A stretch of DNA of 41,966 nucleotides from NCBI GenBank assembly GCA_050122495.1, contig JASFIU010000003.1, positions 1 to 41,966 on the forward strand, in the 5' to 3' direction. This DNA is from Desulfobacterales bacterium (GTDB taxonomy: Bacteria; Desulfobacterota; Desulfobacteria; Desulfobacterales; JAHEIW01). Shown here piece by piece: positions 376 through 38,589 of the stretch. Positions within the stretch are counted from its first letter, which is position 1, and every line of letters starts with the position of its first letter. The translations under genes were made by a program, and so were the position numbers. The notes under the pieces are model-generated. The model had not been told where the DNA came from, searched no databases, and saw only the letters and a program-made list of their open reading frames with translations.

Positions 376-689
376 TACCTTAATCTTCCATGAAAATTAA
401 TGAGAACCGAAAATTAATTTTAGTGTCACAAATTTAAGCAAACTGGCATGGCATAACAAATTACCGATCATTAATAAAGGATCATAATCATTTTATCTCA
501 TTACTTTTCACCCTCACGGGCGAGCCGGAGGCTTCCATCTGCTGCGTTATTAAGGCCGAGGCATCCCGCTTATAGCGGGATAGCCTCAGCCTTAAATGCA
601 CCGCTTTGCGGCATGAAGCATCTGATTTTTAAAGATTAAGGAACTTCTCCTTTTATATGAAAGCCTCCGACTCGTGGAAAATCAAGGTA
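376..689. mobile_element. TA-ended MITE/ERIC-like element, copy 1 (314 bp, with internal insertions)
   Basis: 18-bp imperfect TIRs TACCTTAATCTTCCATGA / TCGTGGAAAATCAAGGTA; core nearly identical to 29707-29908. Confidence 0.75.
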
Positions 690-1577
690 TTAACCTTCCA
701 GGCGCCGGGAGATTTTTAAGATGGTGTTTACGTAGTAGGTGCTGTGGTTGTAATGATAGATAATTTTTTCAGCTTTTTTGCGGCTTTGCCCCGGACGCCA
801 TCCATGGCTTTTGAGATAATTGGCAATACTGGCCATGGAGTCGGCGTGATTGAGCATATCAACCGTTCCATCATTGTTGCCGTCTTTACCGTAAGCCAGA
901 ATGCTGGTGGGCATAAATTGGGCAACGCCCACCGCACCGGCAAAGGAGCCGGGAATTAATGCCGGATCAAAACCTTCCCGGCTGGTGTATTTTAGGAAAG
1001 CTTTAAGTTCTTTATAAGCCCACTTCGATCTGGAGTCGGCTTTTTTTTCAAATTTTTTTCTTGAGATTTTCTTTGAATTCGGAATCAGATCCCAGAACTG
1101 CTCGCGCACCACCGGATCCGTCAGGGCTGCCAGGGTGGAAAGGGTATTCAATGTCGATCGTGTTCCCACCGAAGCACCCAGGCCGGTTTCGACCAGCATG
1201 ATAGCGGTGATGATTCGTCGATCCACACCGAAGGCTTTCTCGGTGCGGATCAGGTCCTCTTTATTTTTTTTCATGTACTGTTTGGCCTTGCGGATGGACC
1301 AGTTATTTGTGAATTGGCCGTAATCCACCTGAGCCTCTTTGTAGGTAAAAAGGATGGTGACACCGTCCGCTTCAAAAAATACCTGGGGCCGGCTGTACAA
1401 TCTATTTATTTTTTTGCGATCAAAACCATCTTTGATCAATTGTTTTTTAACCGATGAAAATGCCTGGCTATCGGGTTTTACTGTAGCCCTGGATTCGGTC
1501 AGAACCAAATATCCGGCGATCAGCAGGCTGATAGCGAAAATTATCCTTTTCGTTTTCCGTTTGTAGCAATGTCGCAT
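690..1577 (-). CDS. mltB: Lytic murein transglycosylase, MltB/SLT_2 family
   Basis: AIMLVET (catalytic Glu), GSFAGAVGVAQFMPTS, DGNNDGTVD EF-hand-like loop, SIANYL, YNHS. Start moved to ATG 1577 (GGGAG RBS, followed by a membrane anchor). Confidence 0.88.
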   Translation of the reverse strand: MRHCYKRKTKRIIFAISLLIAGYLVLTESRATVKPDSQAFSSVKKQLIKDGFDRKKINRLYSRPQVFFEADGVTILFTYKEAQVDYGQFTNNWSIRKAKQYMKKNKEDLIRTEKAFGVDRRIITAIMLVETGLGASVGTRSTLNTLSTLAALTDPVVREQFWDLIPNSKKISRKKFEKKADSRSKWAYKELKAFLKYTSREGFDPALIPGSFAGAVGVAQFMPTSILAYGKDGNNDGTVDMLNHADSMASIANYLKSHGWRPGQSRKKAEKIIYHYNHSTYYVNTILKISRRLEG

Positions 1578-29301: not shown

Positions 29302-29603
29302 GGGTATACCTCCTCTGTTTGATCGCATTTATTTGCACTTATATTAAAAGACAAATATTAGATATCGTTGAGAATTGTGTTAAAAATCAGTTTTATAGCA
29401 TCAAGTTATGATTAAATATGGAAGGTTATGGGCGAGGGTGATGATGTCAGAATCGATAAAATGAAAGCCATCCAATCCCATTATTTCCGTAATATGTGCG
29501 AATAGAATTTAAGGGGATTTTAGCCCTTTTTGCTCATGGAAAATTATTCTTGATTTTTATTAGGAAATTATATTTAACCGTACTTTACAATTTTGTAATT
29601 ATT

Positions 29604-29684
29604 AAACGATGGGAGTGTTACGACCATCGACCCTCCGAAGGCAAAAGCCCGTCAGCGCTTTAAACTTTGCGGTTGGAATCGTTT
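29604..29684 (+). ncRNA. Candidate glycine-riboswitch-like (variant) aptamer
   Basis: P1 AAACGAT/ATCGTTT enclosing GGGAGTG...CTCCGAAGGCA-[AAAGC..GCTTT]-AAACTTTGCGGT; compare the glycine consensus GGAGAG...CACCGAAGGAGCAA...AAACTCTCAGGT. Confidence 0.4.
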
Positions 29685-29706
29685 CCATGCAAGGCCCCCG
29701 GTTTAA

Positions 29707-29908
29707 TACCTGAATCTTGCATGAAAAGTAATGAGAAGTTGGTATTATATTTAAAGGATTAAGACCATTTTATCTCATTACTTTTCACCCTGCGGGCGAG
29801 CCGGAGACTTCCATCTGCTGCGTTATTAAGGCTGAGGCATAGTGCACTATAGCCTCAGCCTTAAGTGCCTTGCATATGAAAGCCTCCGACTCGTGCAAAA
29901 TTCAGGTA
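29707..29908. mobile_element. TA-ended MITE/ERIC-like element, copy 2 (202 bp)
   Basis: TIRs TACCTGAATCTTGCATGA / TCGTGCAAAATTCAGGTA (16/18); core shared with 376-689. Confidence 0.75.
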
Positions 29909-29979
29909 ATAAAAGCTTGTAACCGATCAGCGTGAGACGGATTTACTAACCCTGGACTATTATAGACAAGGAGTGAAAG

Positions 29980-31563
29980 ATGAATCTCAATCGATCGAAT
30001 GCAAACGAAGCGCTTCAAACGAAAAATAGATCTCGCGACGTCGCGCCTCAATCCGGTATCTGCAGCAGGTGTTTGGATGGTTGCAAAGGAAATTGCGACA
30101 TGTTCAAAGCCACTTTTCGGGGGCGGGAGCTTCTTTACCCCCAGCCCTTTGGCAGCGTTACCGCCGGTGCCGATAAGGACTACCCGGTGGATTACTCTCA
30201 TTTAAATATTATGGGCTATGCCCTGGGCGCCAAGGGCATTGAAGCCGATCCTGATAAAGCCACCTTTCCAAACGTCAATACCGAAACCGAATACGGCGTT
30301 ACCGATAAGGTCAAGATGAAAGTGCCGATATTCACGGGCGCCCTCGGCAGCACCGATATTGCGCGCATCAACTGGAACCATTTCGCTATTGGCGCCGCCA
30401 TCAGCGGGATCAGTCTGGTGTGCGGGGAAAATGTCTGCGGAATCGATCCCGCATTGGAATTTGGCGACAACGGTCTGATCAAAAGTTCACCGGAGATGGA
30501 TCGCCGCATCGAGCAATATCGCCGCTACCACGAAGGCTATGGTGATATACTGGTTCAGCTGAATGTAGAGGATACCCGTAACGGTGTGGCCGAATACGTC
30601 ATTGAAAAGCACGGGGTTGAAACCATCGAATTAAAGTGGGGCCAGGGCGCCAAATGTATCGGCGGCGAAATCAAGGTGAACTCTCTGGATCGCGCGATTG
30701 AATTGAAAAAACGGGGCTACATCGTAACGCCCGATCCAGAAGACCCTGCGCATCAGGCCTCTTTTAAGGCCGGGCCTTTGAAACAATTTGAGAGGCATTC
30801 GCGCCTGGGTTTCGTGGATCAGGAAGGCTTCATGAAGGAGGTGGAACGGTTGCGCAAACTGGGCGCCAAACGCATCACCCTCAAGACCGGCGCCTATCCG
30901 ATGAGAGAGCTGGCCATGGCCATCCGCTGGTGCAGCGATGCCGATATCGATCTGCTGACCATCGATGGGGCTCCGGGCGGTACCGGAATGAGCCCCTGGC
31001 GAATGATGTGCGAATGGGGCATTCCGGCTATTTACCTTCATTCTATGGCCTATGAGTTAAGCGAACGCCTTGCGAAAAGCGGCAAGCGCGTTCCGGATCT
31101 GGCATTTGCAGGCGGCTTTTCCTCTGAGGACCATGTTTTCAAAGCCTTAGCCCTGGGAGCCCCCTATTGCAAAGCGGTTTGCATGGGCCGGGCATTGATG
31201 ATTCCGGGCATGGTCGGCAAGAATACCGAACGCTGGTTGCGGGACGAAGATGGCGGACTGCCATCAACCGTATCGAAATTCGGATTTACCAAAGAAGAAA
31301 TCTTTATGAACTATGAAGTTCTAAAGGCCAAATACGGATCGGAGATGGACAACATTCCGTTAGGCGCTGTCGGGCTCTACAATGTCGTTGATAAAATTAA
31401 AGTGGGGCTTCAGCAACTCATGGCAGGATCTCGCAACTGGGAAGTGCGCTATATCAGCCGGGACGATCTATTCTCTCTGACAGAAGATTGTGCCAAAATC
31501 ACCGGCATCAAGTATGTGATGGATGCGTATCGGCAGGAAGCTTTAGAGATCATCGATGCTTAA
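29980..31563 (+). CDS. Stand-alone FMN-binding glutamate synthase family protein
   Basis: IELKWGQGAK, TIDGAPGGTG, KALALGA, MGRALM FMN-barrel motifs; N-terminal CSRCLDGCKGNC Cys cluster; no glutamine amidotransferase domain. Confidence 0.9.
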   Translation: MNLNRSNANEALQTKNRSRDVAPQSGICSRCLDGCKGNCDMFKATFRGRELLYPQPFGSVTAGADKDYPVDYSHLNIMGYALGAKGIEADPDKATFPNVNTETEYGVTDKVKMKVPIFTGALGSTDIARINWNHFAIGAAISGISLVCGENVCGIDPALEFGDNGLIKSSPEMDRRIEQYRRYHEGYGDILVQLNVEDTRNGVAEYVIEKHGVETIELKWGQGAKCIGGEIKVNSLDRAIELKKRGYIVTPDPEDPAHQASFKAGPLKQFERHSRLGFVDQEGFMKEVERLRKLGAKRITLKTGAYPMRELAMAIRWCSDADIDLLTIDGAPGGTGMSPWRMMCEWGIPAIYLHSMAYELSERLAKSGKRVPDLAFAGGFSSEDHVFKALALGAPYCKAVCMGRALMIPGMVGKNTERWLRDEDGGLPSTVSKFGFTKEEIFMNYEVLKAKYGSEMDNIPLGAVGLYNVVDKIKVGLQQLMAGSRNWEVRYISRDDLFSLTEDCAKITGIKYVMDAYRQEALEIIDA

Positions 31564-31587
31564 AATTCCAGAAATGTTTGTATTAAG

Positions 31588-31610
31588 AAGTGGTTTTGAA
31601 ACCACTTTCT
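31588..31610 (+). terminator. Hairpin between the GltB-like gene and the GDH-like gene
   Basis: AAGTGGTTT-TG-AAACCACTT with a short T tail; weak terminator or processing site. Confidence 0.4.
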
Positions 31611-31640
31611 AGCTCAGTGCCCCACTGAAGGAGGTAAGAG

Positions 31641-32993
31641 ATGGCAGATACGACTTTGAAGCAGATTTTAGCAAGAGACCCGGAGCAGAAGGAGTTTCAC
31701 CAGGCTGTTCATGAGGTCATTGAAACCATAAAGCCGGTTTTAGATCGCCACCCGGAATATCACCAACTCGGTGTTCTCGAGCGGATTACGGAACCCGAAC
31801 GCGTGATCCTGTTTCGGGTGCCCTGGATGGATGACGAAGGATACGTGCGCGTAAATCGGGGGTACCAGGTAGAAATGAACAGTGCACTGGGCCCTTTCAA
31901 GGGAGCGCTTAGATTTCACCCTTCGGTCAATCTTGGCATTCTAAAATTTCTGGCCTTTGAGCAAACGTTTAAAAACGCCCTGACAACCCTGCCCATGGGG
32001 GGTGCTCAGGGGGGGTCGGATTTTGAACCCAAAGGAAAATCAGATGATGAGATCATGCGCTTCTGTCAGAGTTTTATGAGCGAGCTGTCCCATCACATCG
32101 GTCAGGATACGGATGTTCCGGATGGTGGTCTGGGCGTGGGAGCCCGAGAAATCGGGTACCTTTTTGGCATGTATAAAAAGCAACGCAATGAATTTAGCGG
32201 TGTTTTGACCGGCAAAGGGTTGCAGTGGGGCGGAAGTTATATTCGTCCCGAAGCAACCGGCTACGGTGTGGTCTATTTTGCAGTAGAAATGCTCGCTACC
32301 CGCAATGAAACCCTGGAAGGCAAAACCTGTCTGGTGTCCGGATCCGGGAACGTGGCGCAACACACGGCTCAAAAACTGATTGAACTGGGCGGCAAAGTTT
32401 TGACCCTCTCGGATTCGTCCGGCTATATCTATGACCCGGAAGGTATCGATCAATCCAAGCTGGATTTTGTCAAACGCTTGAAAAATATCAAACGGGGAAG
32501 GATCAAAGAATATATCGATAAATATTCTGAAGCGATTTACACTGAAGCCGATACCTCACTGGAAGCCAATCCCTTGTGGAATCAAAGAGCAGATTGTGCA
32601 TTTCCGTGTGCCGTGGAAAATGAAATTTCAGAGAATGATGCCTATAATCTGCTCAACAACGGCATCAAATTGATCTGCGAAGGCGCCGACATGCCGTCAT
32701 CACCGGGGGCTGTTAAAATCTTTGCGGACAAGAAGATTCTGTACGCACCGGCTAAGGCAGCCAATGCAGGCGGAGTAGCGGTGTCCGGGCTGGAAATGGC
32801 CCAGAACAGAATGCTCCTGAACTGGTCGGCTGAGGAGGTCGACAGCCGTCTGAAGACCATCATGCAGAACATCCATCAAAACTGCCTGGAGGTGGCGGCC
32901 CATTACGACATGCCGGGCAACTATCTGGTGGGCGCCAACAGCGCCGGTTTTGTGCGGGTGGTTAATGCCATGCTGGATCAGGGATTGGTATAA
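31641..32993 (+). CDS. gdhA: NADP-type glutamate dehydrogenase homologue with substituted catalytic residues
   Basis: Full-length GdhA fold (LRFHPSVN, FEQTFKN, RPEATGYG, SGSGNVA, AANAGGVAVS) but GGAQGG replaces GGGKGG and PDGGLG replaces PAGDIG. Confidence 0.92.
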   Translation: MADTTLKQILARDPEQKEFHQAVHEVIETIKPVLDRHPEYHQLGVLERITEPERVILFRVPWMDDEGYVRVNRGYQVEMNSALGPFKGALRFHPSVNLGILKFLAFEQTFKNALTTLPMGGAQGGSDFEPKGKSDDEIMRFCQSFMSELSHHIGQDTDVPDGGLGVGAREIGYLFGMYKKQRNEFSGVLTGKGLQWGGSYIRPEATGYGVVYFAVEMLATRNETLEGKTCLVSGSGNVAQHTAQKLIELGGKVLTLSDSSGYIYDPEGIDQSKLDFVKRLKNIKRGRIKEYIDKYSEAIYTEADTSLEANPLWNQRADCAFPCAVENEISENDAYNLLNNGIKLICEGADMPSSPGAVKIFADKKILYAPAKAANAGGVAVSGLEMAQNRMLLNWSAEEVDSRLKTIMQNIHQNCLEVAAHYDMPGNYLVGANSAGFVRVVNAMLDQGLV

Positions 32994-33066
32994 TCCCTGA
33001 ATTGCGGGATGAAGCGTCTAATTTTATGACGCCAAGGGGCTTCTCATGATAATTAATGAGAAGTTG
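32994..33066. repeat. Partial copy of MITE modules between convergent genes
   Basis: GCGGGATGAAGCGTCTAATTTT..AAGGGGCTTCTC resembles 608-649; CATGATAATTAATGAGAAGTTG resembles 29720-29741. Confidence 0.55.
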
Positions 33067-33075
33067 AGACTGTAT

Positions 33076-34194
33076 TTAATCGTTTAAGCTTTGCCTGAGA
33101 TACGTGTAAAGATCGATCACCTTGAGATCTGATTGCGTGCCGCTCTGGGCGCACGAAAAATGAATCAGGCATTTGGGGCAGGCAGTGACAAGGATTCGGG
33201 CTCCCGTTTGCTCGGCTTCCTGCAAGCGTTCATCCTGAACGGCTTTCGAATAGCTTGAGCAGGCCATCCAGGCGCTGGTCCCGCAGCAAAGTGCATTTTG
33301 GCGGTTACGCTCCATCTCCACCAGGTCAGTATGGGGAAGCGATTTTAAAAGCTCACGGGGCGGTTCGTATATGCCTGCCAGGCGACCGAGGCGACACGGG
33401 TCATGATAGGTAATTGGACCGGCCGTGGACGGCTGGAAAGATAAGCTTGAATCCGGAAGTTTGCGCGCCAGAAATTCCGTCATGTGCAAAACTTCAAAGG
33501 GAAGCTTGCCAAAATACTTTGGATAATATTTTTTAAAGGTGGCATAACCCTCGGGGCAACTAAAGAGCACGGTCTTGGCTCCGGAGGACTGAATCACTTC
33601 AAGGTTCCAGCCGGCCAGCTTGCGGAAGGTCGCGTGATCTCCACACCATAATGCATCGTGCCCGCAACAGCGTTCATGATTGCTGATGACGGGTTCAATT
33701 CCCATTTTATTTAGCAATGTGAGCACACTCCGCCCGGTCTCCAGGGCGGACAGGTTCAAATATCGGAAGGTCACGTCAAAGAAAGGCAGGCACCCAACAA
33801 AATAAAAATATTCCCCGGTGTCCCCAAAAGCTCCCGCTTCACGAGCCCACTGAGTACGCTGCTGTTTTAAGTCAAAGGTTTGCAGACCGGCGACTGCCTG
33901 CAAAATACCGTGATGGCTTTCTTGAGGATAATTTCCAGCGCTGCGAGCCTCCTGGCGGTGGGCACTGATGAATTCTGGGAAGTCAATCTCTGCCGGACAG
34001 CGTTCACTGCAACTTGCGCAGCTCAAGCAGGCCCAAATTTCGCGACTCTGAACGAGACCGCCATCCGGATCCAATACAGCTTGTTTGATGAGCTGTCTCG
34101 GCGAAAATGTAGACAGCTCACGGCTGATGGGGCAGCTTCCGGTACACAGACCGCATTCCATGCAATAGTCGATTTGTTTTTGAGTAAGATCCAT
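33076..34194 (-). CDS. HdrD/GlpC-like Fe-S protein with CCG domains
   Basis: CMECGLCTGSCP and CLSCASCSERCP ferredoxin motifs; ERCCGH, HDPCRLG, LCCGT, TACPKC. Confidence 0.9.
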   Translation of the reverse strand: MDLTQKQIDYCMECGLCTGSCPISRELSTFSPRQLIKQAVLDPDGGLVQSREIWACLSCASCSERCPAEIDFPEFISAHRQEARSAGNYPQESHHGILQAVAGLQTFDLKQQRTQWAREAGAFGDTGEYFYFVGCLPFFDVTFRYLNLSALETGRSVLTLLNKMGIEPVISNHERCCGHDALWCGDHATFRKLAGWNLEVIQSSGAKTVLFSCPEGYATFKKYYPKYFGKLPFEVLHMTEFLARKLPDSSLSFQPSTAGPITYHDPCRLGRLAGIYEPPRELLKSLPHTDLVEMERNRQNALCCGTSAWMACSSYSKAVQDERLQEAEQTGARILVTACPKCLIHFSCAQSGTQSDLKVIDLYTYLRQSLND

Positions 34195-34207
34195 ATCTTT
34201 ACATTAT

Positions 34208-34624
34208 TCAATTTTCAATCTTCAATTCCGGTTCAAGCGTTTTGAGCAATTCAACAAAATTATGAATTTCTTCTGCAAACGCCGCCCCTTCGGATGCTGA
34301 AATCCATTTCAGTCGCAGGCGGCGCTTATCGATCCCAAGCAATCTGAGAATTTCCCAGGTCTCTTCAATGACCTTTTCACATTTCACATTACCGTCCAGG
34401 TAATGGCAGTCGCCGATATGTCAGCCTGAAACCAGTAACCCGTCTGCCCCCTTAAGGAAAGCTTTTAACAGGAAGCCGTGATTGATTCTGCCGGTACACA
34501 TCACGCGGATCAGGCGCACATAGGTCGGATACTGAATGCGGGACACCCCTGCCAGATCGGCTCCGGCATAAGCGCACCAGTTGCAGACAAAGGCTAAAAT
34601 TTGAGGTTGCGCTGCATTTTTCAT
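34208..34624 (-). CDS. mvhD: MvhD/FlxD [2Fe-2S] subunit, selenoprotein (Sec at TGA 34421-34423)
   Basis: [19 protein letters not shown], then [15 protein letters not shown]...WISASEG in frame to a stop at 34208 (138 aa). Confidence 0.92.
34387..34405 (-). promoter_or_regulatory. Bacterial SECIS element
   Basis: CATTACC-TGGAC-GGTAATG hairpin 15 nt 3' of the in-frame UGA. Confidence 0.75.
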
Positions 34625-34657
34625 TTTCACAATGGCCAGAAATTAATTATTCAATAT

Positions 34658-37600
34658 TCAATCTTCACTTTTCAATTGGTAACGGTCTTCAATCATCCCA
34701 TTGATTTGCTCATCTTTAAAGTGAGACAAGGAGGCCGCTCCGGTGGGGCAGGCCACATTACAGACCCCACAACCCGTACACAGTGATTCTGTCACCAGAG
34801 CCCGCTGCCGGCCTTCGGGAACTTCGGTTACATTGATGGCTTCAAAACTGCAGGCCCTTTCGCATTCACCGCATGCCCGGCAAAGTTCGGCATCCACCCG
34901 ATTGATCATGCCTTCAGCCACAATTTCCTTTTTGGAAAGCACGGTGACTGCCCGGGAAACTGCTCCACGGGCTTGCGCGATGCTTTCATTGGCGAATTTG
35001 GGGCCCTGGGCCAGTCCGCAGAGATAAAAACCGGGCGTCGCAATATCGAGTGGTCTCAATTTCGGGTGGGCTTCCATGAAGAATCCATCTTCATCCAGGG
35101 GCAGCCGCATGGCTTCGGCCAGCTGTTGGCTTTCTTCCCGGGGACGAATGGCGGCGCTCAAAATCACCAGATCCGTTTGCAGCTCAACCGTTGCCTGCAA
35201 TTGCGCATCAAAAACATAAACACCGAGGGTGCCGTCTTGATTGCTTACCCGGGGCTTGTGGTCAAGCTCGAATCGATAAAAGCGAACGCCATGTCGGCGT
35301 GCTTCCGAATAGTACCTTTCTTTGAAGCCAAAGGTACGGATATCCCGGTACAGGACCGATATCTGCGCATTCGGGTTAATGGTTTTTAATTTCAAACTGT
35401 TTTTAATGGCCGCTGTGCAGCACACTCGGCTGCAATAAAGATGTTCGGGCTCACGCGAACCGACACACTGAATCATGGTGACCCGCCTCAGCTTCTTGGC
35501 AGCGTCGGGATCTGATTTCAACCGATCTTCAAATTCTTTTTGGGTGATCACGCCGGGGTGCCGGCCATAAAGGTATTCGGTGGGTGTATGTTCCTGTCCG
35601 CCCGTCGCCACAACCACGACACCATGAGAGATGGTCTGGGACTGATCTTTGACCGTAATATGAGAAGTATAATTGCCACAACTTCCGGTAATGGATGTCA
35701 CCTGTGCTTCTCTGTAAACCGTGATCAAGGGCTGATTTTCAACTTTCTGAATAAGATCTCGAACATATTGAGCTGGATTGGCGCCGTCTTCAGTGTAATA
35801 TAGGGTACGGGCATTGCCGCCCAATTGAGCGCTTCGTTCCACCAGGGTGGACTCAAATCCCTGTTCGGCAAAGGCCAGAGCAGCGCTAAGACCGGCGAGC
35901 CCGCCTCCGACGACCAGGGCTTTTTGAATCACCGCATAGGATGTTTCGTAAAGCGGTTCTAAAAGACGGGCACGCGAAACTGACATTCGCACCAGTTCCT
36001 TAGCCTTATCCGTTGCCTCTTTCGGCGCGGCCTGATGGACCCAGGCATCCTGCTCACGAATATTGGCGAGTTCAAAGAGATAGGGATTGAGGCCGGCTTC
36101 ACGCAGCGTATTGCGGAAAAGCGGCTCATGGGTTCGCGGCGTGCAGGATGCCACCACCACCCGGTTGAGATTATGGTCCTTAATTGCCTGCTTAATTTCC
36201 TGGAGTTGATCGGTGGAGCAGGCAAACATGCAATCGGTTGCATATTTTACGTTCGGCAGCGTACGGGCAAATTCGGCAACCGCCTTCACGTCAACCACAC
36301 CGGCAATATTGATGCCGCAATGACAGACGAAAACACCCATACAAGGTTCTTCTCCAATGACGTTGCGTTCCGCAAGGGGAGATGGGGTCGTCACCAGTGA
36401 ACCTCTTGTTTCCGCTAACAGGGAGGTTGCCTGGGCGGCAGCGCTGCTGCCCTGTTGAACGGATTCCGGAATATCTTTGGGCCCCTGAGCAGCGCCGCAG
36501 ACATAAATCCCGGGCTTTGAGGTGGAGACCACATCCAACGATTCGGAGGCACAGAAGCCATGCTCATTTATTTTTAAGCCAAGGCGTTTTGCCAATTGCA
36601 CAGTTGAAGCGTTCGGACAAAGACCGACGGAAAGGACGACCATATCATATGTTTCTTCCTGGAGGTGATGGTCCGGCGCGGCATAAGAAATGCTCAAGGT
36701 ATCATCTTCGGGATTCGGAATCACTCTGGAGATCAGGGATCGCACGTAGCGGACGTCATTTTCTGATTCGGACTTCTCGTAAAACCGATCGAATCCCTTA
36801 CCCTGGGCCCGAATATCAATAAAAAAAATGGCGGTGTCGATGTCCCGGGCATGTTCTTTGGTGATTATGGCCTGTTTGGTGGCAGACATGCAGCATACGG
36901 CCGAACAGTAATCGCTTCCCATATGGCTGTCACGGGATCCCACACACTGGATCCAGGCGATACGGCGCGGCTTTTGGCCGTCAGAGAGGCGTTGGATGTG
37001 GCCCTGGAAAGGACCGGCTGCTGAAAGGATGCGTTCGTATTCCAAACTGGTGATGACATTGGGCCACCGTCCGTAACCATATTCTCCTTTCGAGCGCGCA
37101 TCAAAGGGTTCAAATCCCCCGGCCAAAATCAACGCCCCCGTTTCGACGGTGACGATTTCATCTTGCTGGTCGAAAATAACGGCTTTATTTTTACACACTT
37201 TTTCGCAGATCCGACATTTTCCTTTTATAAAATAGGTGCAATGTTCTTTATCAATGGTGTAAACAAGGGGGACCGCCTGAGGATAAGGGATATAAATGGC
37301 TTTGCGCTGATTTAGATTTAGATTGAATGGATCGGAAACTATTGCAGGGCACTTCTCAGCGCAAATGTTGCAAGCCACGCATCTTTCCGGATCAACACCA
37401 CGGGCTTTCTTTTTAAGACTTAACTGAAATCGGCCCGGCTCGCCGTCTAAACTGAGAACATCAGTATACGCAAAGATATCGATATTGGGATGATTGGCCA
37501 ATTCCGCCAGCTTGGGGCCCAGCATGCAAGAAGAGCAATCATTGGTGGGGAAGGTTTTGTCCAGCTGCGCCATAACCCCTCCCACATGGGGCCTTTCTTC

Positions 37601-37726
37601 TACTAGATGCACTTTAAAGCCGGAATTGGCAATATCCAGGGCCGTTTGGATGCCGGCTATGCCGCTGCCGACGATGGTGATGGATCCGATTTTTTCTGTA
37701 TGCGGTTTTATTTGTTCCGGGGTCAT
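34658..37726 (-). CDS. hdrA: Large heterodisulfide reductase subunit A-like flavoprotein (two FAD modules)
   Basis: GSGIAG, DKTFPTNDCSSC, QCVGSR..CSAVCC, FVCHCG..SCTPRTH, second GGGLAG/QCVGSR..CSRVCC, ferredoxin motifs; ATG 37726 overlaps the hdrB stop (ATGA). Confidence 0.93.
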   Translation of the reverse strand: MTPEQIKPHTEKIGSITIVGSGIAGIQTALDIANSGFKVHLVEERPHVGGVMAQLDKTFPTNDCSSCMLGPKLAELANHPNIDIFAYTDVLSLDGEPGRFQLSLKKKARGVDPERCVACNICAEKCPAIVSDPFNLNLNQRKAIYIPYPQAVPLVYTIDKEHCTYFIKGKCRICEKVCKNKAVIFDQQDEIVTVETGALILAGGFEPFDARSKGEYGYGRWPNVITSLEYERILSAAGPFQGHIQRLSDGQKPRRIAWIQCVGSRDSHMGSDYCSAVCCMSATKQAIITKEHARDIDTAIFFIDIRAQGKGFDRFYEKSESENDVRYVRSLISRVIPNPEDDTLSISYAAPDHHLQEETYDMVVLSVGLCPNASTVQLAKRLGLKINEHGFCASESLDVVSTSKPGIYVCGAAQGPKDIPESVQQGSSAAAQATSLLAETRGSLVTTPSPLAERNVIGEEPCMGVFVCHCGINIAGVVDVKAVAEFARTLPNVKYATDCMFACSTDQLQEIKQAIKDHNLNRVVVASCTPRTHEPLFRNTLREAGLNPYLFELANIREQDAWVHQAAPKEATDKAKELVRMSVSRARLLEPLYETSYAVIQKALVVGGGLAGLSAALAFAEQGFESTLVERSAQLGGNARTLYYTEDGANPAQYVRDLIQKVENQPLITVYREAQVTSITGSCGNYTSHITVKDQSQTISHGVVVVATGGQEHTPTEYLYGRHPGVITQKEFEDRLKSDPDAAKKLRRVTMIQCVGSREPEHLYCSRVCCTAAIKNSLKLKTINPNAQISVLYRDIRTFGFKERYYSEARRHGVRFYRFELDHKPRVSNQDGTLGVYVFDAQLQATVELQTDLVILSAAIRPREESQQLAEAMRLPLDEDGFFMEAHPKLRPLDIATPGFYLCGLAQGPKFANESIAQARGAVSRAVTVLSKKEIVAEGMINRVDAELCRACGECERACSFEAINVTEVPEGRQRALVTESLCTGCGVCNVACPTGAASLSHFKDEQINGMIEDRYQLKSED

Positions 37727-38589
37727 GAGCCATCCCACAGGTTGAGCTGCCGGAGAAGAGAAAAAGGATCTGAGATATGTCGCGCCAACCAGCGTTCAAC
37801 CCCGGCGAGGTTATGGGCCAGTCCAATCAGTTCGGTAAAGTAATAGATCGGGAAAGAAAACCGTTTGCCCCAATCCGCTCCGATCGATTCCTGATGCATG
37901 TCCAGATTGGCCTGGCACATCTGGCAGGATACGACAATCGCCTGGGCATCGACCCGCTGAGCCATATCATAGAGCTTTCCCACCAGGCTCGAAACGATGT
38001 CCCGGCGCGAGAACACCTGACTGGCGCCACAACAGTCGGTTTTGTACGGCCACGGAATTGGCGTGGCACCCAGATTCTGAATGATGCGATCCAGCGCCTG
38101 TGGATTTTCAGTGTCGGTTGCCTCGGTGATCTCCGGCGGGCGGTTGGCCATACAGCCGTAATAGCATACGACCTTTAAACCCTCCAGCGGTTTGCTTATG
38201 TTTTTGGCCATTAATTTTAACATGGGTTCGGTGGACAGAAAATTTGCCAGATCCCATACGTTGGGCACGGAAGCTTCCAGCTGGATATCGTAACGCTTTG
38301 CGAAATCCTGATTGAGTGCCCAGATTGCCGTTTTGAGTCGATTGAAACACATGGGGCAGGGAACCAGCATGTCCGGGTGCGGAAGACTGGCAGCCAGATT
38401 CAGCGTTCGACCGGCCAGTTCGACGCTTGCCTGATGATCGATGCTGTGGGCGGCGGTTGCTCCGCAACAATTCCAATCGGGAATCTCTTCTAATTGAATG
38501 TCCAGAGAAGTGCAAATTCCGATGATAGATTCAGCGTAATCTCTTGCGGTTCCTTCCAGCGAACAGCCGGGATAATAGGTTGCCTTCAT
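37723..38589 (-). CDS. hdrB: Heterodisulfide reductase subunit B
   Basis: YYPGCSL, WNCCGA, PCPMC, YYGC, DCCGAS, SCQMCQANLD. Confidence 0.93.
   Translation of the reverse strand: MKATYYPGCSLEGTARDYAESIIGICTSLDIQLEEIPDWNCCGATAAHSIDHQASVELAGRTLNLAASLPHPDMLVPCPMCFNRLKTAIWALNQDFAKRYDIQLEASVPNVWDLANFLSTEPMLKLMAKNISKPLEGLKVVCYYGCMANRPPEITEATDTENPQALDRIIQNLGATPIPWPYKTDCCGASQVFSRRDIVSSLVGKLYDMAQRVDAQAIVVSCQMCQANLDMHQESIGADWGKRFSFPIYYFTELIGLAHNLAGVERWLARHISDPFSLLRQLNLWDGS

Follow-up and report, generated by a model that had tools for sequence, protein, structure and literature searches.

Glutamate formation is the point at which nitrogen enters biomass, and the textbook routes to it are glutamate dehydrogenase (GDH) and the pair of glutamine synthetase and glutamate synthase (GS-GOGAT). 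The stretch analysed here, called the window, is a complete contig of 41,966 nucleotides (contig C3) from a Desulfobacterales genome of 4.79 Mb in 597 contigs (85.6% complete); the records of its close relatives carry the label Desulfobacterales metagenome-assembled genomes (MAGs). On the plus strand it encodes a flavin mononucleotide (FMN) protein that resembles the GltB subunit of glutamate synthase and, directly downstream, a GDH paralogue that lacks catalytic residues (Table 1). What does a dead GDH do behind a GltB-like gene? The sequence-only reading of the window had proposed that the two products form one enzyme, assembled from parts of both classical pathways. Our own answer, which is tentative, is that the dead GDH would be a ligand-binding accessory of the FMN protein. 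In the following, handles beginning with L, G and C denote loci, genomes and contigs.

We characterized the GDH copy by profile, structure-database and family alignments. Both ELFV domains are present (Pfam PF02812, E 2.8e-45; PF00208, E 1e-83), the NCBIfam model NF006929 matches with 696 bits (cut-off 536), and PDB entry 5ijz matches with 533 bits; 3aoe and 3aog from Thermus thermophilus and 7mfm/7mft from Bacillus subtilis are also among the PDB matches. The genome encodes a canonical GDH paralogue of 449 aa on contig C300, 71% identical to the dead copy. Alignment with 5ijz and with this paralogue confirmed the exchange of the catalytic Lys for Gln that the sequence-only reading had reported, and revealed two replacements in addition to it, Asp to Gly and Asn to Asp. 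Among 70 distinct aligned GDHs, the Lys, Asp and Asn were kept in 30/30 canonical relatives; in the subclade of the window's copy (n = 23) the Lys position holds Gln in 22 members and Arg in one, Ala122 is fixed, and Asp161 occurs in 18. Across subclades the residue at the Lys position varies among Q, R, H, I, C and S. We take the Lys and the Asp to be the general base and the proton relay, as in Clostridium symbiosum GDH, with whose numbering the offset of our 1bgv match is consistent. Other functional positions have been retained. The dinucleotide motif (G234, G236 and N237 of GSGN; S257, D258 and S259 of SDS) is invariant in all clades, as are K111, R202 and S382. The window's subclade also retains K87, which is Val in 8/11 members of the sister (Desulfotignum) subclade. 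All four residues are presumably contacts of the dicarboxylate, for K87, K111 and S382 again by analogy with the C. symbiosum enzyme.

A tree of these GDHs was built from 73 translations, 70 of them distinct, in which 400 residues or more were aligned (the shorter L048, L056, L073, L074, L078, L083 and L125 were left out), by a quick IQ-TREE search with Shimodaira-Hasegawa-like approximate likelihood ratio test (SH-aLRT) support only. The 34 Lys-less GDHs that adjoin a GltB-like gene all cluster together (SH-aLRT 89), in the midst of canonical GDHs which are themselves located in GltB-like clusters, and the window's subclade, which has lost the Asp as well, has a support of 99. The stand-alone canonical GDH of the same genome belongs to a different, basal group. 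In this tree, then, the dead GDH descends from a canonical GDH of the same nitrogen-linked cluster, with a single origin. The ancestral-type order of that cluster, as seen in relatives, is a GAF-ANTAR gene, an ANTAR-type leader, the GltB-like gene, a gene for a receiver-PPDK_N protein, and GDH. Median pairwise ratios of nonsynonymous to synonymous substitution rates (dN/dS, method NG86, pairs with dS between 0.05 and 2.5) were 0.056 for canonical GDHs (116 pairs), 0.072 for the window's subclade (205 pairs), 0.118 for the sister subclade (52 pairs) and 0.047 for a third, Lys-to-Ala clade (6 pairs). Since the ratios of the dead copies are low, these are maintained proteins under purifying selection and not decaying genes.

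Individual lineages show further states of the gene. An Arg-type copy (L048:7617-8963) reads in three frames, a single-lineage decay. In G022 the gene of the Lys-less GDH is broken in two: residues 1-65 are encoded next to the GltB-like gene and residues 56-450 about 1 Mb away (C1:2886870-2888450 and 1874252-1875436). A canonical GDH remnant with two TAG stops lies upstream of the GltB-like gene of G023 (C1:6344378-6345142). The adjacent GDH of G108 (C1:2194378-2196407) keeps the Lys and has Gly-to-Ala and Asp-to-Glu changes in its motifs (GGAKGG...DFEP); going by these motifs, it is a possible intermediate toward the Lys-less state.

We next consider how tightly the two genes are linked. Among 40 relatives, a GGAQGG copy is directly downstream of the GltB-like gene in 14 loci. 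Within the genus, both genes are found in 14 genomes and neither in six, one of which (G011) is 97% complete; in one more genome a contig end truncates the GltB-like gene. We classed 80 GltB-like loci by the GDH downstream. In 23, the next gene is a Lys-less GDH, with Q, C, S, R or H in place of the Lys, after an intergenic spacer of 54-78 bp that contains a ribosome-binding site. In 18 loci a canonical GDH follows at about 3.1 kb, with a 988-aa receiver-PPDK_N gene in between, and in one it is 370 bp downstream; eight have the receiver-PPDK_N gene and then a contig end or no GDH; 20 have no GDH within up to 6 kb; and ten are too short for judgement. The plus-strand pair in the window thus belongs to a conserved, co-oriented two-gene unit, as had been supposed from its sequence.

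In a sample of 301 genomes of the order, a degenerate GDH-motif pattern gave 265 matches in 208 genomes, and a GltB-like match (E <= 1e-60) was found in 221 genomes. A codon not starting with A stands at the Lys position in 34 of the GDH matches, from 28 genomes (Q 13, A 14, R 3, H 3, S 1), and the sample also holds one Ile copy. Of the 19 Q/R/H copies, 18 immediately follow the GltB-like gene on its own strand, as does the Ile copy, and the Q/R/H copies hold this place across several families. None of the 15 A/S copies does so, and eight of these are in genomes without a GltB-like match. Judged from these motif counts, Lys-less GDHs are a wider phenomenon in the order. Of the 221 genomes in which a GltB-like match was found, no more than 19 have an adjacent Lys-less GDH; 17 of the 19 hold a further GDH motif copy, and the other two are 79% and 87% complete. 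The co-occurrence that the sequence-only reading had anticipated is therefore one-sided, holding for the Q/R/H copies and not for the GltB-like family at large. Since the Q/R/H type of dead GDH goes with the FMN gene while the FMN gene is independent of it, the pattern is that of an accessory rather than of an obligate subunit.

The Lys-to-Ala class has a setting of its own. In the genus, its members carry the motif GGGASG, and each is a solitary gene with an ABC transporter on one side and an HMGL-like gene on the other (L138:6561-7910, minus strand; L139:1983-3344, minus strand; L140; L141). In the order sample it was found in G158, G034 (C436), G117 (C46), G274, G299, G169 (C53), G087, G193, G228, G149, G053 (C15), G131 (C39), G304 and G279 (C20). 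Tandem GDHs also occur: a Lys copy and a Ser copy are 1.4 kb apart in G303 (C102:37732-39147), and G236 (C4:328560/333520) and G268 (C21:112271/117232) each have, a few kb downstream of a GltB-like gene, two copies with identical motifs at a distance of 5 kb from each other.

What kind of protein does the first gene encode? Pfam Glu_synthase (PF01645) matches residues 278-408 only (E 2.7e-15; 56.9 bits against a cut-off of 20.4), which spans profile positions 185-309 of 369, about a third of the profile. No NCBIfam model matches the protein, Pfam detects no amidotransferase or GXGXG domain in it, and a sequence search of the PDB returned only de novo designed TIM barrels over a 30-residue stretch, which is uninformative. 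In public sources, including the ESM Atlas, the family is named 'FMN-binding glutamate synthase family protein'. With a threshold of E <= 1e-3, a phmmer search of 1.84 billion representatives reached 1100 of them, and with E <= 1e-30 it reached 192; many of these sequences are fragments. This limited reach sets the protein apart as a separate family. Over the 80 loci, from many genera of the Desulfobacterales and neighbours, identity is 75-95%.

An AlphaFold2 model made from a 25-row alignment and folded without cofactor had a mean predicted local distance difference test score (pLDDT) of 83.9 and a predicted template-modelling score (pTM) of 0.87. Foldseek matched this model to FMN barrels, the highest TMq being 0.50 for 1ofd, and VIA-align gave its longest alignment, 345 residues at Z 21.7, to the glutamate synthase GltS (6s6s). 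In a profile-profile comparison (hhalign) with the archaeal-type GltB of the same genome, which has Fer4 and Glu_synthase domains, the probability was 92.6 and the E-value 4.6e-7; ELKWGQGAKCIGGE is paired with IKYGQGAKPGDGG, GENV with GEGG, and IDGAPGGTGMSP with IDGEDGGTGAA. The FMN protein thus keeps stretches that align with the GQGAK and GGTG motifs of this GltB, which we take to form the 2-oxoglutarate/imine catalytic site of GltS. The N-terminal cysteines 28, 31, 35 and 39 are kept in 23/23, 23/23, 22/23 and 23/23 of the family members that cover the N-terminus, and this Cys4 region has low pLDDT in the cofactor-free model. They are the conserved cysteines of the family, other cysteines not being kept; the three-Cys [3Fe-4S] site expected in the C-terminal part of the FMN domain, with GltS spacing, is not there, since only C397 and C401 are found, kept in 9/25 and 15/25 members. 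The Cys4 motif is probably an Fe-S (or metal) site. The glutamate-synthase-type FMN barrel with an N-terminal Cys4 motif that had been read from the sequence thus stands, and the comparisons place the protein as a real but distant relative of the GltS FMN domain, in a separate family with a putative metal site of its own. It shares with GltS and with the archaeal-type split GOGAT the FMN TIM barrel, the GQGAK and GGTG stretches and an N-terminal Fe-S site, putative here; it differs in matching only about a third of the Pfam profile, in matching no NCBIfam model and in having no amidotransferase, GXGXG or GltD component at its locus, and where the archaeal-type GltB subunit has a two-cluster ferredoxin domain it has a single Cys4 motif.

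The FMN protein is not the GOGAT of its own genome. The sequence-only reading had pointed out that an amidotransferase and a GltD partner are missing; this holds for the locus, where neither the FMN protein nor the flanking genes supply an amidotransferase, a GXGXG domain or a GltD-type partner, but not for the genome, which has a split GOGAT on contig C2 (C2:8641-13936; L142). The three genes of that cluster encode a protein of 376 aa with no Pfam hit, presumably an amidotransferase-like subunit, one of 544 aa with Fer4 and Glu_synthase domains, and one of 782 aa in which GXGXG is fused to a GltD-like Fer4_20/Pyr_redox_2 module; carbamoyl-phosphate synthase genes come after them. GXGXG is found in this genome in the C2 cluster only, and PF00310 was not found in the assembly, at its 85.6% completeness. 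Across the order, 17 genomes had no GXGXG match, and seven of these have a GltB-like match. These GXGXG counts neither require nor exclude a role of the FMN protein as a GOGAT substitute.

In relatives, the GltB-like gene is associated with regulators linked to nitrogen. A gene for a GAF-ANTAR protein of about 240 aa (Pfam GAF, E 1e-20; ANTAR, E 1e-19), whose GAF part resembles that of NifA, lies upstream of it in many loci. NrpR is the 2-oxoglutarate-responsive nitrogen repressor of methanogens; an NrpR-family gene (Pfam NRD1_2, E 5e-81) lies divergently upstream in seven bacterial loci (L089:2949-3956, minus strand; L090, L092, L095, L096, L099 and L116). A KaiC-HTH-cupin regulator is upstream in 12 loci. 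The conserved leader between the GAF-ANTAR and GltB-like genes has a TTGACA-type promoter and two hairpins, of which the first is, for example, GCAC-AATGGC-GTGC and the second GAC-AAAGGC-GTC; the 3' side of the second runs into a GC-rich stem with a T run after it. Gene and leader stand in this order at, for example, L098:1281-2256, L047:5029-6001, L088, L097, L070 and L072. ANTAR targets have this build, a pair of short 6-nt-loop hairpins of which the second overlaps a terminator. This arrangement was found in 19/25 leaders of relatives, and the GAF-ANTAR gene with its leader looks like an undescribed nitrogen-linked ANTAR regulon, as far as gene order and leader sequence tell. An Rfam search of ten related loci gave nothing relevant; its only match was a group II intron domain (RF00029, 53.3 bits) at L061:594-664. 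ANTAR control of nitrogen genes has been documented in Geobacter (GnfK/GnfR; PMC2995071, in the part of the article available). The relatives' GltB-like operons are like that system in the preceding ANTAR gene and in the paired 6-nt-loop hairpins, and differ in that the sensor domain is GAF and not a receiver.

The window and the whole Lys-less clade also differ from the Geobacter system in having neither the ANTAR gene nor the leader. The dual-hairpin leader was found in 18/19 loci with canonical GDH, 7/8 with the receiver-PPDK_N gene only, 7/20 without GDH, and 0/22 of the adjacent Lys-less loci with enough upstream sequence; none of 23 Lys-less loci has the GAF-ANTAR gene. The window and the rest of its genome gave no dual-hairpin match, and tblastn found no close GAF-ANTAR homologue in the genome (best match 27% over the GAF part). 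A Pfam ANTAR search of the genome gave no match, but its control was silent in all 14 genomes, which makes this zero uninformative. In 25 loci the 988-aa receiver-PPDK_N (ATP-grasp-like) protein is encoded after the GltB-like gene and before the canonical GDH (for example L098:4115-7081 and L047:7706-10672, both plus strand); two homologues, 55% identical, are located elsewhere in the window's genome (C19:15575-18502 and C84:2353-5265). Three things changed together in the Lys-less clade: the receiver-PPDK_N gene left the operon, ANTAR control disappeared, and GDH lost its catalytic residues.

Given these observations, we tentatively favour, at somewhat below an even chance, the explanation that the dead GDH is a non-catalytic, ligand-binding accessory of a nitrogen-regulated GltS-type FMN enzyme, which it would tune after translation, the FMN enzyme carrying out a glutamine-free reductive amination. 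The FMN protein would perform GltS-type chemistry without glutamine, on 2-oxoglutarate or a similar 2-oxo acid, and a low-potential donor would supply it with electrons by way of the Cys4 site. The dead GDH would have ceased to turn over glutamate; it would bind NADP(H) and a dicarboxylate and, as a sensor or modulator, influence the FMN enzyme. In the Lys-less clade its appearance would accompany the loss of the RNA-level ANTAR control.

Several results weigh against this explanation. Since 284 of the 301 genomes sampled from the order have GOGAT-type GXGXG genes, there is no evident need for a second glutamate-forming enzyme. With the predicted model as query, the structure search does not single out GltS among FMN barrels: VIA-align gave hydroxy-acid oxidases (mandelate oxidase), type-2 isopentenyl diphosphate isomerase (IDI-2) and inosine monophosphate dehydrogenase (IMPDH) Z scores of 23-25 over 285-309 aligned residues. 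FMN protein without a nearby GDH, in 20 of the 80 loci, makes any partnership of the two optional. The 14 copies of the Lys-to-Ala class never adjoin a GltB-like gene (seven are in genomes without a GltB-like match, and the single Lys-to-Ser copy is in an eighth such genome), so a Lys-less GDH can have a role independent of the FMN enzyme. The three joint changes in the Lys-less clade may trace to one ancestral event, which would make them a single phylogenetic observation. Finally, G163, L164, D350, R390 and L392 are each fixed in 23/23 members of the window's subclade and Gln at the Lys position is found in 22/23, and two of the changes resemble charge shifts by two positions (D163 to D161 and R392 to R390). 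As read from the alignment, such replacements are not random loss, and fit a remodelled, possibly catalytic pocket as well as they fit a sensor.

This last point leads to an alternative that we consider unlikely, though the most probable of the rivals, in which the Lys-less GDH is an enzyme with changed chemistry, for example an NADPH-dependent reductase of a preformed imine or 2-oxo acid, acting in the same pathway as the FMN protein and not as its regulator. Reduction of a preformed imine or 2-oxo acid needs no Lys/Asp-assisted imine formation or hydrolysis, and the fixed new residues, the apparent relocation of charge, the intact dinucleotide motif and a dN/dS as low as in active GDHs would all suit such an enzyme. 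So would the K87-to-Val exchange in the Desulfotignum subclade, the Lys that contacts the substrate side chain being one that changes with substrate specificity in this dehydrogenase family. The variation of the residue at the catalytic Lys position by subclade is, however, unlike what a specific new catalytic role would leave, and fixed residues in close sequences may reflect shared ancestry only. To our knowledge, moreover, every active member of the family keeps the Lys and the Asp.

The dead copy may instead serve the canonical enzyme, a suggestion we find less probable still: it would be a regulatory subunit that co-assembles with the genome's own canonical GDH, and its place behind the GltB-like gene would mean shared regulation only. 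The high identity to the canonical paralogue and the further GDH motif copy in most genomes with an adjacent Lys-less copy are in keeping with it, as is a precedent: in the available part of a preprint, T. thermophilus GdhA is described as an inactive GDH homologue that is the regulatory subunit of GdhB (bioRxiv 10.1101/2025.10.31.685773). As far as that part goes, the two cases are alike in that an inactive GDH paralogue is kept by selection in a genome with an active GDH and presumably has a regulatory role. They differ in location, since the dead copy here is behind a GltS-like FMN gene and not beside the active GDH on contig C300, and in type, since it is of the large GdhA type and matches 5ijz with 533 bits but 3aoe with 188. 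Separation from the canonical gene argues against such a subunit, as does the persistence of 18/19 Q/R/H copies behind the GltB-like gene across several families, and in two of the 19 genomes no further GDH motif copy was found at their completeness of 79% and 87%. The stand-alone Lys-to-Ala class would suit a subunit of canonical GDH better.

The original proposal was an obligate two-protein enzyme, with the FMN/Fe-S protein as the catalyst and the pseudo-GDH as an NAD(P)H-binding or allosteric subunit. Tight synteny, with the short spacer and its ribosome-binding site, and joint gain and loss of both genes within the genus speak for it, but we judge it improbable and the survey of loci does not support it: the FMN protein occurs without a GDH within up to 6 kb in 20/80 loci and with a fully canonical GDH in 19/80, and a Lys-less copy adjoins it in few of the genomes that have it. 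A GDH fold is also not known to hold a flavin for one-at-a-time transfer of electrons from NAD(P)H to Fe-S/FMN. In B. subtilis, the genes of GudB and GltAB are not known to be adjacent. The complex of this GDH with GOGAT, which had been cited in support of the proposal, is real, and it shows that such proteins can bind each other: the accessible part of the report describes a counter-enzyme complex in which GDH and glutamate synthase are coupled physically and functionally and control glutamate flux (bioRxiv 10.1101/2021.04.12.439528). GudB, however, is a working enzyme, and its partner GltAB is a complete GOGAT that includes amidotransferase and GltD-type subunits, whereas here a dead GDH stands beside a single FMN-domain protein.

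That the GDH copy is a functionless decaying pseudogene or an assembly or sequencing artefact is hardly credible, for although decay is seen in the two lineages described above (L048 and G022), intact 450-aa frames with the same replacements recur in dozens of independent assemblies, the median dN/dS of the subclade is low, and RNA libraries contain exact-match pieces of the gene.

A more ambitious version of the accessory explanation, to which we give little credence, treats the pair as a so far unrecognized ammonia-assimilation device of energy-limited anaerobes: a ferredoxin-driven, glutamine-independent GltS-type reductive aminase gated or fed by a remodelled GDH shell, with control at the protein level replacing the ancestral GAF-ANTAR riboregulation. 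The shell would neither make nor hydrolyze imine and would still bind NADP(H) and a C5 dicarboxylate; it might be a sensor of redox and of carbon/nitrogen status, or a partner that handles imine and so couples the ferredoxin pool to that of NADP(H) via glutamate/2-iminoglutarate.

A dead dehydrogenase kept as an accessory is a known kind of protein. The closest match to the mechanism that we favour, tuning of the FMN enzyme by a non-catalytic GDH, is the alanine-dehydrogenase-like pseudoenzyme ADLP of T. thermophilus, whose catalytic Lys is replaced, which keeps NAD(H) binding and which regulates a CoA transferase, according to the available part of the preprint (bioRxiv 10.1101/2025.10.31.685773). 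Both are amino-acid dehydrogenase homologues with a replaced catalytic Lys; ADLP belongs to another dehydrogenase family and has another target, and its interaction and NAD+ sensing are, in that part of the source, experimental, whereas ours are deduced. What is new here is the partner, the GdhA-type scaffold, the visible series from ancestor to derived state, and the swap of regulatory architecture. We found no literature on this FMN family or on Lys-less GDHs in open-access full text. An abundant group of marine and freshwater sulfate reducers has a candidate third route in this GltS-like flavoenzyme, which is wired to GAF-ANTAR and NrpR regulators. The related genomes also offer an enzyme-to-pseudoenzyme case in which ancestor, intermediate and derived state are all present, a candidate pair for studying how dead dehydrogenases sense NADP(H) or 2-oxoglutarate, and a handle on a protein group that is automatically annotated as if it were GOGAT.

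Table 1. Features of the two-gene unit and its leader (positions in the window)
Feature	Position	Strand	Basis
Window-specific intergenic stretch, missing from nearest relative	29387-29535	.	BLASTN against L009, alignment
Perfect palindrome TTACAATTTTGTAA (TTACAA-TT-TTGTAA)	29585-29598	.	Pattern search
Copy of short repeat, ~45 bp	29638-29682	+	BLASTN of own genome; also in leader of relative L025
Copy of ~205-bp repeat element, the 'riboswitch-like' part of the leader	29703-29914	+	Own-genome copies, RNA-library contig breaks
Only leader segment common to close relatives, with ribosome-binding site AAGGAG	29915-29979	+	BLASTN, alignment
GltB-like FMN TIM-barrel protein, 527 aa, 'FMN-binding glutamate synthase family protein'	29980-31563	+	Open reading frame list, Pfam, AlphaFold2 model, structure and profile comparison
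Codons of family-wide Cys4 motif, C28-x2-C31-x3-C35-x3-C39, a probable Fe-S (or metal) site	30061-30096	+	Family alignment
Intergenic spacer, 77 bp, with GAAGGAGG before the second ATG and a short hairpin without T run	31564-31640	+	
GdhA-type GDH paralogue, 450 aa, without catalytic residues	31641-32993	+	Open reading frame list, Pfam, NCBIfam, alignments with PDB entries and relatives
Codon CAG of Gln123, replacing the catalytic Lys (GGAQGG vs GGGKGG)	32007-32009	+	Alignment with 5ijz and own paralogue
Codon of Gly163, replacing a conserved Asp (DGGLG vs AGDIG); Asp two residues earlier, D161	32127-32129	+	Alignments
Codon of Asp350, replacing a conserved Asn (EGADMP vs EGANMP)	32688-32690	+	Alignments

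The leader upstream of the pair had been read as a sensing element, with an operator-like palindrome and a riboswitch-like fold. The palindrome is present exactly as reported, but an operator role finds no support: 0.09 copies of the exact pattern are expected per window and at least one copy arose in 9/100 shuffles, and the class is a common one, with 17 perfect 6+6 palindromes in the window at a spacer of 2 nt and 74 at spacers of 0-4 nt. It sits within 29561-29918, a stretch that is missing from the nearest relative (L038/L009), and it is missing from orthologous loci; by these counts and alignments it is at chance level for its class and unconserved. BLASTN of 29330-29979 against the nearest relative (L009), whose GltB-like protein is 95% identical, matched only 29331-29386, 29536-29560 and 29919-29978, and of 75 other upstream regions only that of L038 matches, over no more than the last 65 nt and one 25-nt patch.

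The hairpins of the leader are real and lie within repeats. Rfam gave no match at gathering score for about 29600-29979, the seven matches at E <= 1 being microRNA hairpin models with 19-26 bits against cut-offs of 50-230, and none for the ~205-bp element. Because the leader consists mostly of two multi-copy repeat families and is specific to the window, its hairpins belong to mobile or repeated elements and not to a conserved riboswitch. As the alignments have it, the palindrome and the hairpin-rich leader are inserted repeats and have no conserved role. A promoter and terminator scan stayed at shuffle level, so that no promoter can be assigned, and called no terminator-like site in the spacer between the two genes; a check of the leader by eye, made without a tool, showed no sigma-54 -24/-12 element.

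Exact-match contig pieces of both genes were found in the Logan contigs of four metatranscriptome runs, at 30020-30283, 30386-30536 and 30441-30661 in the first gene and at 31742-31892, 31908-32077 and 32163-32390 in the second. They are a weak sign of expression, DNA carry-over being possible. No contig in these runs bridges 31563-31641, the cover being patchy. The ~205-bp element has a high depth: contigs pile up on it and break off at its ends, at 29703 and 29905-29913, as would be expected of a multi-copy element.

The upstream neighbours of the pair are, on the minus strand, genes for a PHP/CehA-like hydrolase and an inositol-3-phosphate synthase (Pfam/NCBIfam), and the downstream neighbours, also on the minus strand, are a CCG/Fe-S gene, an FlpD gene and a 1026-aa Pyr_redox_2/Fer4 gene. 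The flanking genes are common only to the closest relative (L038), which places them outside the two-gene unit. The convergent downstream cluster (33076-37738, minus strand) has the look of an Hdr set, its products being HdrD-like (CCG/Fe-S), MvhD-like (FlpD) and HdrA-like (the 1026-aa protein); we had considered these genes as an electron-donor partner and dropped them, the CCG/Fe-S gene being common only to L038.

Both repeat families of the leader occur widely in the genome. The short one (29638-29682, extending to 29704 in some copies, thus about 45-67 bp) has at least 12 further copies, on contigs C351, C178, C40, C17, C31, C223, C93, C106, C80, C498, C54 and C5, and is also found in the same leader of a congeneric genome (L025). 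The ~205-bp element has terminal inverted repeats of about 15 nt (29707-29721 and 29894-29908) and two long internal hairpins, and nine further full or partial copies with 75-94% identity were found on eight other contigs and once more on C3 (window 475-693; C199:5482-5687, C387:3219-3426, C21:1805-2007, C100:1712-1916; C315, C155, C306 and C25). Its stems show paired, compensatory-looking changes among copies, and it may be a MITE-like (miniature inverted-repeat transposable) element or a structured RNA family. Some copies have an extra insert of about 50 nt, and a fragment of the element lies at 33045-33088, between the GDH gene and the downstream Fe-S cluster.

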